Under the pieces are notes generated by a model. That model saw only the letters and a list, made by a program, of their open reading frames with translations, searched no databases and was not told where the DNA came from. DNA of 64,000 nucleotides, taken from positions 928,001 to 992,000 of the forward strand of contig CAXXMD010000003.1 of NCBI GenBank assembly GCA_963675755.2. The letters run 5' to 3'. The position numbers and the translations under genes are program-made. Below, one piece after another: positions 14,719 through 28,191 of this stretch (positions within the stretch are counted from its first letter, which is position 1; the number at the start of each line of letters is the position of its first letter). This stretch comes from a bacterium (lineage in GTDB: Bacteria; Zhuqueibacterota; Zhuqueibacteria; Residuimicrobiales; Krinioviventaceae).

Positions 14719-15507
14719 TTATTTTTTCAGATTCAAATATACCTTTGCGTATCGCTTCCCCAGCTCACGAGCAGATTGAGTGTTGAAATGGACATTATCG
14801 GATCTGCAGGAAAGTCCATCTGATTTTACAAAAGCCGCATTTACCACCTCTTTTGCTGCATCCTTATGCGCCTGGTTCACAGTCTTTTTAAAATCATCCC
14901 AGGGGTTGGTCTCAAACTGGCCCATCTGCCCTATGAGAAAAGGCAGTTCAGGGTATCCCAGATCCGTTCTAAAGCGTGAGATCAAACTGATCAGCTTTGT
15001 CTTGTATGAACCGGCAAGAAGCGGTTCACAATCGCTTTCCCCCTGGTGCCAGAGAATTCCCTCAAGGTGCCCATCCAGCATGGCAAGACGTGCGCGTTTA
15101 ATAGCATCATCATAGGGATGGCTTTTGGTTTGATCATGATATCCACCCGGCTGCCAGGTATCTATGGGAGATCCACCACATGCCGCGGGGACCAGTCCTA
15201 TGACTATCGACGTGTCCTGCTCAACCAGTGCCAGAGCAAATGACTTGCCGGGTCCTACTCCCGCTGCACTTTTATCATAATGTATGGGGTCTATTGCAGG
15301 TACCCATTTGCCTTCTTTTGTCAACATTAACACCCGCGGATGGATTTGTTTGCTCAATGAATCAACATTACCGCGCCCGGCCATGTTAGATTGACCGGCC
15401 AATAAGAAAATATGAAAATTTTGTTTTTCAGGCAGATTTATTTCTGCAGAAAAAAGCATATTGCTACTCACAAACAAAAGCAGACACAACCACAACGCTT
15501 TTTTCAT
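14719..15507 (-). CDS. Sialate O-acetylesterase/SASA (CE6-like) carbohydrate esterase
   Basis: GQSNMAG, WHQGESD and D..HF motifs; signal peptide. Confidence 0.88.
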   Translation of the reverse strand: MKKALWLCLLLFVSSNMLFSAEINLPEKQNFHIFLLAGQSNMAGRGNVDSLSKQIHPRVLMLTKEGKWVPAIDPIHYDKSAAGVGPGKSFALALVEQDTSIVIGLVPAACGGSPIDTWQPGGYHDQTKSHPYDDAIKRARLAMLDGHLEGILWHQGESDCEPLLAGSYKTKLISLISRFRTDLGYPELPFLIGQMGQFETNPWDDFKKTVNQAHKDAAKEVVNAAFVKSDGLSCRSDNVHFNTQSARELGKRYAKVYLNLKK

Positions 15508-22487: not shown

Positions 22488-23111
22488 TCAACCTCCCTTC
22501 TTGATCGTGTCAGCCGCATCAGCAACGGCTTTGAAAATATTGGGATACGTTCCGCAACGGCACAAGTTGCCCGAAACGCCGGTTTTGATTTCTTCCAATG
22601 TAGGCTGATCATTTTCTCGCAACAAGGAGACACAAGACATGATAAATCCGGGTGTGCAAAATCCACATTGCAGGGCATCATGCTTGACAAAGGCTTCCTG
22701 CACGGGATGCAGCTTGTCGCCATCTGCAAGGCCTTCCACAGTCTCTAATGACGCGCCATCGGCATCCAGGGCGAGTATACTGCACGCCAATACGGTTTTC
22801 CCATCCATAATGATAGTACAGGCACCGCACTGTCCACGATTACAAACCCGCTTGGTACCGGTGTAATCCAGATCATTTCGCAGCGCATCCAGCAGTGTTA
22901 TGCGCGGATCGATCTCGAGCTCATGCTTTTTTCCGTTTACAGTGAATGCGATCTTGACAGCTCCGGGGCCCACAACTTTGGCGCCATGCGGACCTTCCGG
23001 GGCCGCTTCCACCGCAGTTGCAGTTATAACGGTTGCTCCGGCTACACCACCGCCTAATCCTTTAATAAAATTACGGCGTGACATACCGGAAGTTTGTTTT
23101 AGATCACCCAT
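22488..23111 (-). CDS. 2x[2Fe-2S] subunit with Tat signal (PaoA/YagT type)
   Basis: SRRNFIK twin-arginine leader; C..GQCGAC and QCGFCTPG...GNLCRC motifs. Confidence 0.93.
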   Translation of the reverse strand: MGDLKQTSGMSRRNFIKGLGGGVAGATVITATAVEAAPEGPHGAKVVGPGAVKIAFTVNGKKHELEIDPRITLLDALRNDLDYTGTKRVCNRGQCGACTIIMDGKTVLACSILALDADGASLETVEGLADGDKLHPVQEAFVKHDALQCGFCTPGFIMSCVSLLRENDQPTLEEIKTGVSGNLCRCGTYPNIFKAVADAADTIKKGG

Positions 23112-24113: not shown

Positions 24114-24869
24114 TTAGTGAAAAAGTTTAATTTGGACTCCGTATCGATTATTATGTCTTTCAAAATCTGAACCTTTTGTGTATAAATCATTATCATCGTA
24201 TAAAATATTGTAAAAAAATGATAATGAAATAAATTTGTAATCCCACCTGATTCCAGCTAAATTCATATACCCGGATTTGACCCTACCATCATTTTTATGT
24301 GATTTGAATTCATTAAATAACCAAAAATGATCAATAGGCCTATATGCAACACTAATCATGTCAGGTTTATGAATGATTCCAAAAAACATTATATGTTTTT
24401 GATAACCTAATGAATAATAAAAATCATTTATCCTTTTACTAAATGTAATTCCTAACATCCAGTCGAAGGAAAGAAATGATAAATTGATATTAGTATATTT
24501 TGTTTCTTTAAGACGTATTATAGATTTTATATAATTTACATTTACTTTCCTTGTTAAAAACTCATCACCTCTTTGATTGTGAATTCTGGGTATAACTGCT
24601 CTACCAAACTCCAAATACATTCTATTATAGACCATCAAACCTCTTTTGGTATTATATTGAACATTATTGTGGAATGATGGTGTGTGTTCACCATGATGTT
24701 CCATTAAAAACCAATAAAAAACAAAGTTTTCTGTGTAATCAAGTGATAAATCCAAATTTTTAGTTTGAAATAGCCCAGGAAAATTAATGAATTCAAAATT
24801 TGATTCTTTTGCATTCGTATTTACTGAAACCAGTAAAAAAGGAATTATAAACAAATAAAATAATTTCAT
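24114..24869 (-). CDS. Hypothetical AT-rich exported protein, possibly an outer-membrane beta-barrel
   Basis: GGAG RBS before ATG 24869; signal peptide; aromatic amphipathic strands ending YGVQIKLFH. Confidence 0.6.
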   Translation of the reverse strand: MKLFYLFIIPFLLVSVNTNAKESNFEFINFPGLFQTKNLDLSLDYTENFVFYWFLMEHHGEHTPSFHNNVQYNTKRGLMVYNRMYLEFGRAVIPRIHNQRGDEFLTRKVNVNYIKSIIRLKETKYTNINLSFLSFDWMLGITFSKRINDFYYSLGYQKHIMFFGIIHKPDMISVAYRPIDHFWLFNEFKSHKNDGRVKSGYMNLAGIRWDYKFISLSFFYNILYDDNDLYTKGSDFERHNNRYGVQIKLFH

Positions 24870-25241
24870 AATTTTCTCCAAAAGTTATAAATGTTATTCA
24901 ATCAAGAAAACTATGGCGATCTAAAAGCATTTCCCCTTGATTTCATATTGTACCCCACAGTACATGAGCATCTCTTTGCAAATTGGATTACAGTATTCAC
25001 GTGTAGTACGACCCCGTGAAGCGCTGAATTACAAGTGAGTTCCCTCGTCACTCGATTATAATTACGCATCCAGCACTCTTGTTTTTTATGATAAGTAAAA
25101 TTTCTGACTTGATCAAGAGGAACCATAATAAATAGACTTTTTTATTTCTCTTCCAAAATATTGGGCTATTCTCCCATTCCAATCACCCTGTAATCTCACC
25201 AATCCTACTCTTCCTTTCTCATATCGTTCTGTCTCCCGTCT

Positions 25242-25293
25242 TTTTCACTTGATTATTTGTCAAAAAATGTCTAAGTATTAAAAATTTGCAATT
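25242..25293 (+). repeat. 52-bp direct repeat, left copy
   Basis: TTTTCACTTGATTATTTGTCAAAAAATGTCTAAGTATTAAAAATTTGCAATT; 51/52 identical to 27131..27182. Confidence 0.95.
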
Positions 25294-25297
25294 ACTA

Positions 25298-25511
25298 GAT
25301 CGTGACGGAGATAATCTCCGTCACGATCATAAAATGCAAAGACCGCTGAGAACGCAGAGATTTCAGAGAAAACAAAATAAATTGCCTCGGCGATCTCCGC
25401 ATGCTCTGCGTTAAAAAATGAATGGTGAGCCGGTCACCATGATCTCGTATCCGAGACAATAAAAGGTGGGTTGAAAAAATGCCAGACATCAAGTCAGGGT
25501 TACAAACTATA
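25298..25511 (+). repeat. ~210-bp palindrome-headed repeat, unit 1
   Basis: GATCGTGACGGAGAT-A-ATCTCCGTCACGATC, then ACGCAGAGATTTCAGA, AATTGCCTCGGCGATCTCCGC and a tail colinear with unit 2. Confidence 0.9.
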
Positions 25512-25536
25512 ATGCAAAAATTGTGATTATTTTACG

Positions 25537-26103
25537 ATGAAAAAAAAATTAATTATCATTATTATTGTATATTTTTTAAGCATAAATTTTCTAAATTTTT
25601 CAAAAAATTTATACTTATTTTCAACTTATAATTTTTCAATTAGTTGTTTTGAACCCAATCGACATATATCAAATCAATACCGTCAATGGGAAAGAGTTAT
25701 AGATAGTTATCAGCATGTTTCAGATGCAAGATATATTGAGAATATAATAATTTTTTCAGATAATACAGGATTTTATCGATTGAGATGTTATTCATTAAAA
25801 ATTTTTAATATTGATTCTGAACCTTATTCATGGTCACCTCTATTACCATATGATCAAAATTATTTTATAGATTATTTTGCAGAAATCCAAATTGACTCTC
25901 AATATGTTAAATTTTTACCAAATCCTAACTCGATGGTTAATAATGGTACAAGATATTCAAAATTTAAAATTAAAGAGAACAAGTTTTACCTTGATTCATA
26001 TCGAGAGCTCGAAAAATATAAAATGGATCCAATCTGGATTGTACCTCAAACAGAAAAAATCAAGTTTTCAAATTATTTATATTTTTCTTACTTTTTTGAA
26101 TAG
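25537..26103 (+). CDS. AT-rich orphan protein with N-terminal signal/anchor (cassette 1)
   Basis: 188-aa open frame in very AT-rich DNA; MKKKLIIIII leader; no family recognised. Confidence 0.65.
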   Translation: MKKKLIIIIIVYFLSINFLNFSKNLYLFSTYNFSISCFEPNRHISNQYRQWERVIDSYQHVSDARYIENIIIFSDNTGFYRLRCYSLKIFNIDSEPYSWSPLLPYDQNYFIDYFAEIQIDSQYVKFLPNPNSMVNNGTRYSKFKIKENKFYLDSYRELEKYKMDPIWIVPQTEKIKFSNYLYFSYFFE

Positions 26104-26163
26104 CCGGTTGCTGAGTATTGTCTGAATTAAGATTTTTAGGATGAAAGGATTTTAGGAAAGTCA

Positions 26164-26198
26164 ATTTGCCCGGCACTTGAAAAAAGTGCCAGGCAAAT
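26164..26198. repeat. REP-like hairpin family B
   Basis: ATTTGCCCGGCACTT...AAGTGCCAGGCAAAT; related hairpins at 43108-43140 and 48141-48168. Confidence 0.7.
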
Positions 26199-26206
26199 CT
26201 TTTCAA

Positions 26207-26420
26207 GATCGTGACGGAGATAATCTCCGTCACGATCATAAAACGCTGAATCCGCCGAGGACGCAGAGATTTCAGAAGAATTAAAAGAATTGCCTCGGCG
26301 ATCTCCGCGTGCTCTACGTTTAAACATTGGATGGTGCGCTGGTCGCCCGGGCTTTGTATTCGGGATAAATAAGGCGGAGTGAAAAAACCAGGACATTAAA
26401 TCAGAGGATTGCAAACTGTA
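26207..26420 (+). repeat. ~210-bp palindrome-headed repeat, unit 2
   Basis: Identical 31-bp palindrome; colinear with unit 1 through ...CAAACT[AG]TA. Confidence 0.9.
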
Positions 26421-26463
26421 AACAATCCTAATAAAAAATCACAATTAAAATGATTTGTACATT

Positions 26464-26652
26464 ATGGATGATTTCATTCTTATTTGTATCATTATTCCTT
26501 TAGTCCCTATAATTGTAATTTTACGTGCTATATTTAAAGATTTCCTTTGGGGAAGAAAAATAAAGAATATTAAATACTATATTAAATATTTTGTAGTGTA
26601 TATTTCAATAATCTCTTTAATTTTTATCCTGGATTATATAGGTGTATTATAA
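26464..26652 (+). CDS. Small AT-rich two-TM orphan protein (cassette 2)
   Basis: Two hydrophobic helices separated by a Lys-rich loop; lies between repeat units 2 and 3. Confidence 0.5.
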   Translation: MDDFILICIIIPLVPIIVILRAIFKDFLWGRKIKNIKYYIKYFVVYISIISLIFILDYIGVL

Positions 26653-26718
26653 TAAAGCAACTATTATTATATATAATTTTTCTTGTCCGCTCAGTTGCAC
26701 CGGATTGACTCTTTTCAA

Positions 26719-27050
26719 GATCGTGACGGAGATAATCTCCATCACGATCATAAAACGCCAGAGCCGCCAAAGACGCAGAGATTTACGATCATATCTGGCA
26801 GATTATCTATCGTTTAATTTTTTTCACTGCTTTTACTATCACGAAATCCTTGTTTTTCTCTGTGCCCTCTGTGTCTCTGTGGTTATTGTCTTTACAGTCA
26901 ATTATAAGGTCATCTGCTGATAAAAGAACAGATAATCTCCAATCCTGTTCATCCTTTAATCTTCTACATCCTAATTTAGACAAAAAAATGAATTGCCCTG
27001 GCGCACTCTTAAAAAAGAATAATGAACTGGTCACCCGGAACTCGTGTCCT
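26719..27050 (+). repeat. Palindrome-headed repeat, unit 3 (degenerate and interrupted)
   Basis: Palindrome with one mismatch; homology runs to 26784 and resumes at 26991 (AATTGCC...TTAAAAAA.GAAT..TGA.C.GGTCACC...CTCGT.TCC). Confidence 0.8.
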
Positions 27051-27130
27051 GCAAACTTTTAAGATATAACGAAAATTGTAAAATGAATAAATCACATCTC
27101 GTCGTCGCTCCGATACGTACATCCCCCCAA

Positions 27131-27182
27131 TTTTCACTTGATTATTTGTCAAAAAATGTCTAAGTAATAAAAATTTGCAATT
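27131..27182 (+). repeat. 52-bp direct repeat, right copy (upstream region of the epimerase gene)
   Basis: 51/52 identity to 25242..25293; ends 22 nt before ATG 27205. Confidence 0.95.
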
Positions 27183-27204
27183 TCCCACAAACCAGAGGTC
27201 AATC

Positions 27205-28191
27205 ATGAAACGTATTCTTGTTGTATTGTTGCTATTTTTCACAGTAATGGGATACGCGCAGAAAACACCCACGGGCAATCCCAAAGATTTTAAAGTCAAA
27301 ACCTGTCTGCACTCGGTCAGCTATGCCGGAGTGTGGCGCGGTCAGACACAGTTAACTGTTGACGAGTTTCTGGTCAAAGCCAAAGAACTGGGTTACGACG
27401 GTGTCATGCTGGTGGCCAAACGCCCCCATGTATCCATTATTGATTATGATCAAGCGGCCCGCAAAAAACTCAAAGCCCGTATAGAAGAACTGGGCCTTGA
27501 ACTGGTTGCCCTTGCCGGTTATACCGATTACACAGCCGGCATCGACAAGCCCGGCATCCCCCATACCGAGATCCAGGCCGCATACGTAGGTGAACTGGCA
27601 AAACTGGCCAAAGATCTGGGCACCAATATGGTCCGCATCTTTACCGGATACGAAAGACCCGGTATCCCCTACGACAAGCAATACGCCATGGTATTGGAAG
27701 GATTAAGAGAATCAGGCAAACGCGCGGCAGAGTACGGCGTAACCCTGGTGGTGCAAAACCATCACGATATTGCCCTGCATCACGATGCCATGTACTGGCT
27801 GCTCAAAGAGGTCAATATGCCCAACGTCATGTCCGGCTGGGATGCCTGGTCGCCCACACTGGAAGGCTTGAGCAAAGAAGAAATCCGCGAATCCATCCTG
27901 AAAATGAAACCGTTTATCGTCAATACCATTGCCGCGGATTATATCACCATGCCCCGCTACCATTACGAAAACCACCTCACCAATTATATTGCCGAAAAAC
28001 CGGTCATGCGTGCGGTCCCCATGGGCACCGGCGTTATCGATTATGAGAACTTTATCGGTACTTTGAAGGAAATCGGCTACCAGGGCTATATTGTCTATGA
28101 AATGTGCGAAGTTTTGGATGGCGGCGGTTCTATGGAAAATCTCGACAAAACCGCCAAGGCTTTTTTGGATTATGTCAAAAAATTTGAATAA
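27205..28191 (+). CDS. Exported sugar-phosphate isomerase/epimerase (AP-endonuclease-2 TIM barrel)
   Basis: LGYDGV, RIFTG, QNHHD, PMG.G.IDY, GY.G....E motifs; signal peptide; GAGG RBS. Confidence 0.85.
   Translation: MKRILVVLLLFFTVMGYAQKTPTGNPKDFKVKTCLHSVSYAGVWRGQTQLTVDEFLVKAKELGYDGVMLVAKRPHVSIIDYDQAARKKLKARIEELGLELVALAGYTDYTAGIDKPGIPHTEIQAAYVGELAKLAKDLGTNMVRIFTGYERPGIPYDKQYAMVLEGLRESGKRAAEYGVTLVVQNHHDIALHHDAMYWLLKEVNMPNVMSGWDAWSPTLEGLSKEEIRESILKMKPFIVNTIAADYITMPRYHYENHLTNYIAEKPVMRAVPMGTGVIDYENFIGTLKEIGYQGYIVYEMCEVLDGGGSMENLDKTAKAFLDYVKKFE

Follow-up and report, generated by a model that had tools for sequence, protein, structure and literature searches.

An array of palindrome-headed repeats and AT-rich orphan genes, probably a mosaic of REP-type hairpins in a variable intergenic island

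Does a row of repeats that alternates with small AT-rich genes indicate a system for the capture of genes, or can it be explained by repeats that accumulated in the gaps between them? This question is raised by an array at positions 25242 to 27182 of the window, by which we mean the whole forward-strand stretch of 64,000 nucleotides analysed here (C3:928001-992000; positions without a contig name refer to the window). The window belongs to a bacterial genome, denoted G000, which comprises 6.48 Mb in three contigs (C1, C2 and C3). A preliminary description of its sequence had recognised three copies of a non-coding element of about 210 bp, each headed by a palindrome, and had proposed either a gene-capture or cassette system or a structured RNA leader supplied to each gene. 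We assign a probability of about 0.75 to a different reading, namely that the array consists of hairpins of the repetitive extragenic palindrome (REP) type, named REP-A, which were spread by a REP-associated tyrosine transposase (RAYT), named RAYT-A, and which stand in a mosaic with other repeats in a variable island, and that it does not consist of gene cassettes.

A dispersed hairpin and its probable enzyme

The palindrome GATCGTGACGGAGATAATCTCCGTCACGATC comprises 31 bp, with a stem of 13 bp, a loop of 5 nt and GATC at both ends, which lies within the size of a REP (a stem-loop palindrome of 20-40 bp). It was found exactly at 25298-25328 (copy 1) and 26207-26237 (copy 2) and with one mismatch at 26719-26749 (copy 3), which confirms the three co-oriented copies heading a shared sequence that had been reported before. 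Both strands of the window together showed six matches compared to 0.00 expected from 100 shuffles. Genome-wide, a search with the pattern GTGACRGAG-N5-CTCYGTCAC and at most two mismatches returned this short-loop form at 46 sites. A long-loop form was represented by 41 exact copies, 19 with a loop of 15 nt and 22 with a loop of 14 nt, the latter being dispersed in both orientations, and the two forms together amount to 87 copies. The 13-mer GATCGTGACGGAG occurs 68 times (42 and 26 on the two strands) compared to approximately 0.1 expected per strand, and 16-mers of REP-A reach up to 25 occurrences and lie near the top of the 16-mer ranking of the genome.

The stem of 13 bp is perfect in 18 of the 46 short-loop copies, and 35 of them comprise at most one non-Watson-Crick pair. 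While the 5-nt centre is variable, the stem is preserved by paired changes, from CGGAG/CTCCG to CAGAG/CTCTG and from GATC/GATC to GATG/CATC, AACC/GGTT or GAAC/GTTC. A single GATC head, on one side only, is present in 37 of the 41 long-loop copies, and most short-loop copies have one at each side; the short form reads as a long form whose loop is cut to one base and which is headed at both ends.

The position of the copies relative to genes was determined with greedy longest-open-reading-frame (ORF) calls made for this analysis, which are not a proper annotation. After setting aside five short ORF calls judged spurious, all 46 short-loop copies were intergenic. The nearest gene end was a 3' end for 35 of the 46, compared to 44% when 20,000 intergenic positions were drawn at random (binomial p = 1.8e-5). 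Convergent gaps contained 14 copies, tandem gaps 25 and divergent gaps 7, the null fractions being 0.12, 0.63 and 0.24; tandem or convergent gaps accordingly hold 39 of the 46. Since this bias is found genome-wide, copies 2 and 3 of the window, which are situated 104 nt past the stop of the first ORF of the array (ORF188) and 67 nt past the stop of the second, small ORF, are read more naturally as trailing these ORFs than as heading the next unit. The genes beside REP-A showed a median fraction of G and C (GC) of 0.438, compared to 0.399 for all ORF calls, and a median length of 1000 nt compared to 1023 nt. An association of REP-A with AT-rich orphan genes was also examined and is rejected, since the neighbours are ordinary genome-wide in GC and length. 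For the gene-capture proposal, the preliminary description had named copies scattered without enrichment upstream of orphan genes as the outcome that would speak against it, and this is what was found: 46 scattered intergenic sites, neighbours that are neither AT-rich nor short, and copies that follow genes. The exact copies of the GTGACRGAG hairpin are very unevenly placed: 65 of 69 lie on C3 (339 kb to 2.53 Mb) and the other four on C2 (2.45 Mb), and C1 has none.

Another explanation for a perfect dyad symmetry would be the site of a dimeric regulator or an intrinsic terminator, the copies of which were selected singly and not spread as a repeat. A T-rich tract (at least 5 of 8) follows the hairpin on one or both strands in 26 of the 46 copies, compared to 8% per strand for random 8-mers, which would fit a terminator. 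However, the T-rich side ignores the direction of the genes (16 of 53 facing and 12 of 39 non-facing sides, odds ratio 0.97), and T tracts are missing from all three window copies, none of which is listed by a terminator scan. Furthermore, the avoidance of divergent promoter regions (7 of 46) and the arrays that the same arm forms around a transposase gene do not agree with a regulatory site, and a conserved half-site of 13 nt far exceeds the length of regulator half-sites. We regard this explanation as extremely unlikely. A strand test for an RNA hairpin, based on the strand on which a mismatch becomes a G-T wobble, gave no signal (sense of the ending gene 8, opposite 6).

The transposase gene in question was obtained by a search of the genome for Y1 transposases and then with a RAYT model, which yielded five genes. 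RAYT-A (C3:340671-341204, 177 aa) is a single-copy gene 613 kb from the array. It scored 116.4 bits on the NCBIfam model NF047646 'REP-associated tyrosine transposase' (cut-off 80) and failed the IS200 model with 31.2 bits (cut-off 55). Its sole match among solved structures was TnpAREP of E. coli (4ER8, E = 0.0088), the alignment spanning the histidine motif (NHFHMI vs EHMHCI) and the DYIHYNPV stretch. Both flanks of the gene carry the hairpin GATC-GTGACGGAG-N15-CTCCGTCRC in 19 exact-stem copies, and in more with one mismatch, all in direct orientation and many about 79 nt apart, and these hairpins share head and stem with the window palindrome. The most abundant 16-mer flanking RAYT-A showed 19 genome copies, compared to 9-11, 10, 2 and 4 at the other RAYT-like loci; highly abundant words flanking a rayt gene are given as diagnostic for REP/RAYT in an excerpt of PMC5581495. 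No tnpB-like gene was seen in the 3.3-kb RAYT-A locus. At C3:339357-342252, the long-loop hairpins are interleaved with a second hairpin, CGCAACGGAGA..TCTCCGTTGCG.

REP-A is a genus-specific, hairpin-forming extragenic repeat of the REP type and a further instance of the known REP/RAYT kind. Judged from the sequence, RAYT-A is its probable enzyme: as an HUH/Y1 enzyme acting on single-stranded DNA hairpins it would bind and cut REP-A, and it would have spread the repeat genome-wide, at least in the past. The earlier suggestion of a recombinase acting in trans is supported in part. The palindrome is very probably a substrate of an HUH (Y1) enzyme in trans, for which the common stem and the GATC head around RAYT-A speak; no tyrosine recombinase is present within 349 kb. 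As had been stated before, no integron integrase was found: the genome contains four Phage_integrase matches, the nearest at C3:604557 and 349 kb off (attC core motifs were not searched for). Because of this distance to the nearest tyrosine recombinase, and because the repeat is not cassette-specific, the array is excluded as a member of integron-like systems.

REP-A and RAYT-A are not the only such pair in the genome, as three further RAYT-like genes are each flanked by a hairpin family of their own. The gene at C3:2392795-2393238 is accompanied by the family ATTTGCCCGGCAC..GTGCCGGGCAAAT (REP-B), which comprises 17 copies including one in the array at 26163-26198. Hairpins of the type CGTGATGCAG..CTGCATCACG flank the gene at C2:1359717, and hairpins of the type TCCGTCCCAAAC..GTTTGGGACGGA flank the gene at C2:1813559 in the classical inverted arrangement. 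A second hairpin of the REP-B type, TTGCCCGGTACCATCAAGGTGCCGGGCAA, is situated in the window at about 43110 (C3:971110).

Composition of the repeat units and the genes between them

The array represents the right half of a 4-kb AT-rich gap, which extends from a minus-strand xanthine-dehydrogenase-type operon ending at 23111 to a xylose-isomerase-like TIM-barrel gene starting with an ATG at 27205, and both alternations of palindrome and ORF lie within 25242..27182. The REP-A copies are spaced by 909 and 512 nt, with one ORF per interval. Units 1 and 2 (25297-25512 and 26206-26421) showed 79.1% identity over 220 nt. For unit 3 the homology is confined to the first ~70 nt, with 90.5% identity to unit 2 (74 nt) and 85.1% to unit 1 (67 nt). 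Since a weak distal piece of it was detected at 26982-27051 (nhmmer E = 6.1e-05), unit 3 can be described as a copy broken by about 200 nt of other repeats.

Past the palindrome, the sequence consists of two modules, an imperfect inverted repeat of about 80 nt with CGCAGAG-type words (H) and a tail of small hairpins (T), which like all following modules are given on the plus strand. In unit 1, H covers 25333..25412 with the arrangement AATGCAAAG..CGCTGAG..ACGCAGAG / CCTCGGCG..CTCCGC..CTCTGCGTT, and T covers 25413..25512, with partial relatives at C1:344514, C3:555084 and C3:3386616. The homologous modules of unit 2 lie at 26242..26321 (H) and 26322..26421 (T). In unit 3 the copy breaks off after the left arm of H (26750..26785); a CTCTGTG-doublet motif (26850..26893) lies within the interruption, the M-right module follows at 26922..26988, and the degenerate distal part at 26982..27051 comprises the right arm of H and the start of T. 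Between ORF188 and REP-A copy 2, the M-left module (26116..26157), a diverged member of the TGTCTGAATTAAG..GGATT family, and the REP-B hairpin ATTTGCCCGGCAC..GTGCCAGGCAAAT (26163..26198, corresponding to C3:954166) are found. M-left and its inverted partner M-right form the arms of another hairpin element; the arms are adjacent at C2:1927000-1927108, and one contig joins them with 17 nt between. By eye, M-left and M-right are similar to a repeat of the type TTAAAGGGATTGGGATAATTCTG, which provides the 16-mers with the highest count in the genome (27 copies) and to which no enzyme was linked.

Outside the array, BLAST located REP-A at 47 loci, M-left at 19, the CTCTGTG motif at 8 and M-right at 5, and no second copy of ORF188, the small ORF or the spacers in the genome. 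The H module amounts to about 8 copies, and H or H+T occurs without REP-A at C1:99804, C1:348646, C3:2340756, C3:2346699 and, in the sister species G001, at G001:C1:1975731. Its layout of two words, a loop and two inverted words is repeated with CACAGAG words at C3:1103847. The CTCTGTG motif adjoins long-loop REP-A on C3 at 743 kb, 1833 kb, 2215 kb and 2221 kb, and six other genomes of the order contain matches to it. In one of another genus (G040:C16:312699-313450), copies of the doublet stand about 100 nt apart. Since a REP-B hairpin and the two M arms lie in the same block as the units, the array is read as a mosaic of interspersed repeats. The unit of about 210 bp would be a local composite of REP-A, H and T, which was copied two or three times in one island and presumably spread there by duplication or recombination.

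Among the intervening ORFs, ORF188 (25537..26103, plus strand, GC 0.23) is an AT-rich orphan gene with a hydrophobic N-terminus, and the small AT-rich ORF (26455..26652, plus strand) comprises 65 aa from a TTG or 62 aa from the ATG at 26464, with two hydrophobic stretches. The earlier finding that units 1 and 2 each precede an unrelated, co-oriented and very AT-rich ORF was reproduced (BLASTP E = 1.0; GC of about 0.23-0.27 compared to a genome mean of 0.40). Neither ORF matched a Pfam or NCBIfam family, including immunity and toxin families. ORF188 gave no match in G001, and a search of 5.8 billion proteins, limited to lengths of 103-329 aa, returned only ORF188 itself; its matches in the ESM Atlas reached at most 0.79 and were without families. 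However, an ORF of 206 aa in G004, a genome of the same family and another genus, showed 29% identity over the full length (E = 7e-20). ORF188 is taken to be a real gene because of this full-length homologue in another genus; the small ORF is a candidate gene only and not shown to be a gene. In G004 the homologue is one of seven small AT-rich ORFs that follow each other in one orientation and match no Pfam family (4206-8830 of L030, i.e. of G004:C26:70000-89999). Some of these seven ORFs are followed by a short hairpin repeat, AATGGTGCGGTAGAACCACA.., and about 10 kb off there are an insertion sequence (IS) and a RAYT-like gene in which a TAG occurs internally.

The distance from the units to the ORFs raises the possibility that H+T is a portable expression module, which would provide the next orphan ORF with a promoter or with a structured 5' leader and be selected for expression. 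As described before, the homology of the units ends shortly before the next ORF, and the measured distances are 24 nt for ORF188 and 33-42 nt for the small ORF. Including C1:99804 with its 187-aa ORF, three H+T copies end 22-42 nt 5' of AT-rich ORFs with a hydrophobic N-terminus, and a short open frame, in which hydrophobic runs were read by eye, comes after the copy at C3:2340756 that comprises H only. Moreover, the alignment of the copies shows by eye, at a shared position close to its 3' end, a hexamer resembling a -10 element: unit 1 has TATAAT there, and TGTAAA and TAATAT stand in the others. On the other hand, no such ORF follows unit 3, C1:348646 or G001:C1:1975731, and C3:2346699 is followed by an ordinary gene. 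The number of cases is small, and they depend on each other in part, as units 1 and 2 are not independent.

That the unit may act as a structured RNA leader was not supported by covariation either. For seven sequences of H, RNAalifold predicted a long nested hairpin in which 2 of 21 pairs were compensated and the covariation term was penalising (+1.92), and the minimum-energy folds of units 1 and 2 agreed in the REP-A and H hairpins and differed outside them. Since the modules are dispersed separately, compensated changes are scant and the folds differ, we interpret the unit as several DNA repeats put together and not as a single RNA. A scan of 24500-27600 against Rfam 15 with E up to 10 gave no family at its gathering score; the best matches (27.4 bits with a gathering score of 88, and 25.2 bits with one of 97) concerned the palindrome alone, and the matches obtained were resembling hairpins below threshold, microRNA precursors among them. 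Altogether, the expression module is considered unlikely. In a mosaic of REP-type hairpins, REP-A might still influence the expression of a neighbouring ORF.

Hallmarks of a CRISPR array are lacking as well, given intervals of 909 and 512 nt that contain ORFs. The 28 window proteins scanned between 13 and 45702 comprised no Cas, recombinase or transposase family.

The locus in the sister species

Among 40 relatives, G001 is the only other genome of the genus. Its flanking genes are 88-94% identical to those of the window, and the 1.9-kb array is absent. In G000 the array is flanked by direct repeats of 52 bp at 25242..25293 and 27131..27182 (plus strand, 98% identical), for which BLAST found no further copy in the genome and which have homologous copies at the same locus in G001. 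Since the right copy immediately precedes the TIM-barrel gene, the left copy may be a duplicated promoter-proximal segment. In G001 the 52-bp repeat leads straight into the TIM-barrel gene, a second copy (85% identical) lies 110 nt upstream, and the locus contains an insertion of its own of about 490 nt with other hairpins. The array could be either a gain in G000 or a loss in G001 through recombination of the 52-bp repeats. To the left of the array, the slot of ORF255 is occupied by two unrelated ORFs in G001; elsewhere, G001 has another small gene in place of the H+T copy at C1:99804 and the AT-rich ORF of 187 aa that belongs to it. The island is accordingly read as fast-changing, AT-rich and intergenic, with small orphan genes, and a REP-B hairpin and two M arms lie in it as well.

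With respect to its range, a scan of the relatives with the REP-A pattern (at most two mismatches) gave 35 copies in G000, 21 in G001 and none in 39 other relatives, and a single further record with the repeat was found when 185,579 species genomes were scanned. Two scans of metagenome contigs returned no match for the junction of REP-A and H and none for the REP-A pattern. The preliminary description had called for a comparison of cassette content across strains or metagenomic reads; G001 lacks the array and has other genes nearby, and the metagenome contigs added no further copies.

For 14 REP-A sites of G000 the corresponding place in G001 was inspected. A related hairpin was found at the same place for 7 sites; one copy was absent together with about 250 nt, three lie beside replacements of 1.8-3 kb, one lies at a synteny break and two could not be placed. 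The copy at the synteny break is that at C3:1469137, the flanks of which map to about 6.118 Mb and 6.067 Mb of G001. In assemblies of three runs from one study, contigs end at the three REP-A copies of the array. No convincing excised or alternative form of the array was present in these contigs, which do not reveal circles or the ends of transcripts. Joints were seen at the palindromes, or from 26144 to 26922 with 17 letters between, the latter originating from another M copy (likeness threshold 85%).

These data bear on the possibility that RAYT cuts the segments between co-oriented REP-A hairpins (909 and 512 nt) from single-stranded DNA and pastes them elsewhere, as IS200/IS605 transposases do, so that they would be REP-bounded gene cassettes. 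The array is present in G000 and not in G001 and is bounded by direct repeats, its ORFs are far more AT-rich than the surrounding repeats, RAYT-A itself lies between directly oriented hairpins, and an excerpt of PMC2817692 describes the RAYT family as akin to IS200/IS605 transposases. However, neither ORF and none of the spacers has a second genomic copy, and ORF188 is without a match in G001. Genes beside REP-A are ordinary throughout the genome, the symmetric short form offers no left or right end, and both the contigs of the three runs and the metagenome scans were negative. The cutting and pasting of such segments is very unlikely on this basis. Likewise highly improbable is an extension for which nothing but the architecture was found to speak, in which REP-A-bounded stretches together with H+T are cut and pasted as single-stranded DNA by a domesticated HUH transposase, which would amount to an integrase-free, integron-like capture. 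If true, intergenic hot spots of this lineage would be supplied with AT-rich orphan genes that each bring an expression module along. In the preferred reading of an REP-A mosaic, the alternation of repeats and genes would instead result from repeats that settled and survived in the gaps after genes.

Several observations weigh against this mosaic of REP-A hairpins spread by RAYT-A. The gene of RAYT-A is nested in an array of direct hairpins and not flanked by an inverted pair of REPs, and the conserved head is GATC and not GTAG or CGTC, the tags of the two super-families described in an excerpt of PMC3733652. Only the long-loop (N15) form surrounds RAYT-A, and not the short symmetric form of the window, and therefore the link between them rests on the common 13-nt arm and the head. 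With a total of 87, the copies stay below the more than 100 per genome that an excerpt of PMC2817692 calls usual for REPs. In G001 no orthologue of RAYT-A was found, the best match being 40% identical over 50 residues, although 21 copies of the repeat are kept; repeat and enzyme co-occur in one of the two genomes carrying the repeat. Many REP-A copies are apparently old, because a related hairpin stands at the same place of G001 in 7 of 14 sites, and current mobility is not shown. Finally, units 1 and 2 are alike, yet the ORFs that follow them are unrelated, and simple accumulation of repeats leaves this regularity unexplained. The H+T copy at C1:99804 likewise precedes an AT-rich ORF, at 22 nt, and is likewise missing from G001.

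Relation to known mobile and mosaic repeats

The closest known counterpart is the REP/RAYT system of gamma-proteobacteria (REPtrons; e.g. yafM/TnpAREP of E. coli, Stenotrophomonas and Pseudomonas; PMC2817692, PMC3733652, PMC3479197). Both comprise a short extragenic palindrome in many copies with paired stem changes, a preference for tandem and convergent gene gaps, which the excerpt of PMC3733652 reports for REPs, and the same hairpin around a single-copy Y1/HUH gene that scores as RAYT. Several REP/RAYT pairs in one genome and the restriction of a family to a narrow taxon are further points in common. Unlike the known systems, REP-A has a GATC head, a direct hairpin array around the gene, about 87 copies and not hundreds, and, among its dispersed copies, a short-loop derivative that is perfectly symmetric and carries the head at both ends. 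Classically, rayt lies between two inverted REPs, from which RAYT-A differs, while the pair at C2:1813559 conforms.

By analogy, the block resembles the bacterial interspersed mosaic elements (BIMEs) of E. coli, in which REPs and other short motifs stand in varying order and the same modules recur together. In contrast to BIMEs, whole genes lie between the repeats here; the regularly alternating orientation of REPs by which BIMEs are defined is unreadable for the symmetric REP-A. REPINs, which are REP doublets with a long hairpin (PMC3116915, PMC3337134), are comparable in that the H module and the pair of M-left and M-right represent inverted arms around a short spacer, and the short form of REP-A looks like two heads joined. 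However, none of the RAYT genes found in G000 has H or M arms at its flanks, and H comprises only about 8 copies. IS200/IS605 elements and their non-autonomous palindrome derivatives likewise combine a Y1/HUH enzyme acting on single-stranded DNA hairpins with direct hairpins, as are present beside RAYT-A, whereas RAYT-A fits the RAYT model, stays below the IS200 cut-off and is single-copy.

Integron arrays share with the locus the co-oriented small ORFs, a recurring imperfect palindrome and a content that differs between close relatives. They differ in that the repeat described here occurs genome-wide beside ordinary genes and is not an attC that travels with its cassette; it is specific for the host genus, and the ORFs look foreign in composition. 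In Bacteroidales, recombinase-associated arrays of orphan immunity genes consist of small AT-rich genes with conserved intergenic sequences and a leading tyrosine recombinase. Small AT-rich genes of unknown function are also present here, but no tyrosine recombinase is nearby.

The locus is accordingly removed as a false lead for a new gene-capture system. Instead, a clear REP/RAYT set is added to the record for an uncultured lineage that probably does not belong to the proteobacteria, the group from which most studies of these systems come; this placement of the host derives from type IX secretion system (T9SS) sorting domains and CarboxypepD_reg-TonB receptors among the window proteins. The dependence of REPs on their transposase is touched by the hairpin families, of which the genome has four or more, every one next to a RAYT-like gene of its own, and by the GATC head, the RAYT nested in a direct array and the spread of a symmetric short-loop derivative. 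The sister species bears on it as well, keeping 21 copies with split RAYT-like genes and no RAYT-A orthologue found. In practice, such repeats break short-read assemblies, as seen at the REP-A copies, and they mark intergenic spots at which gene content changes between close species.

The split genes of G001 lie in two pieces in separate frames at G001:C1:6442346-6442799 and 6210872-6211284. The slot of G001 that is syntenic to RAYT-A contains three other genes, two of which show N-terminal motifs resembling those of Toll/interleukin-1 receptor (TIR) domains by eye (ISFAGEDRE; FYSFHY..DNWRASQVRN). A RAYT homologue was matched in 26 of 41 genomes. Where the sequence beside these genes in relatives was readable between masked runs of N, it showed hairpins on both sides of the gene in G018 and only downstream of it in G017. 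In G004, a RAYT-like gene is bracketed by inverted repeats with CGCAGAGGATT..AATCCTCTGCG hairpins (2122-2146 of L026; about 15015-15063 and 18573-18621 of L030). These hairpins share a word with the H module of the window, a lead according to which the CGCAGAG words of H may be derived from a REP.

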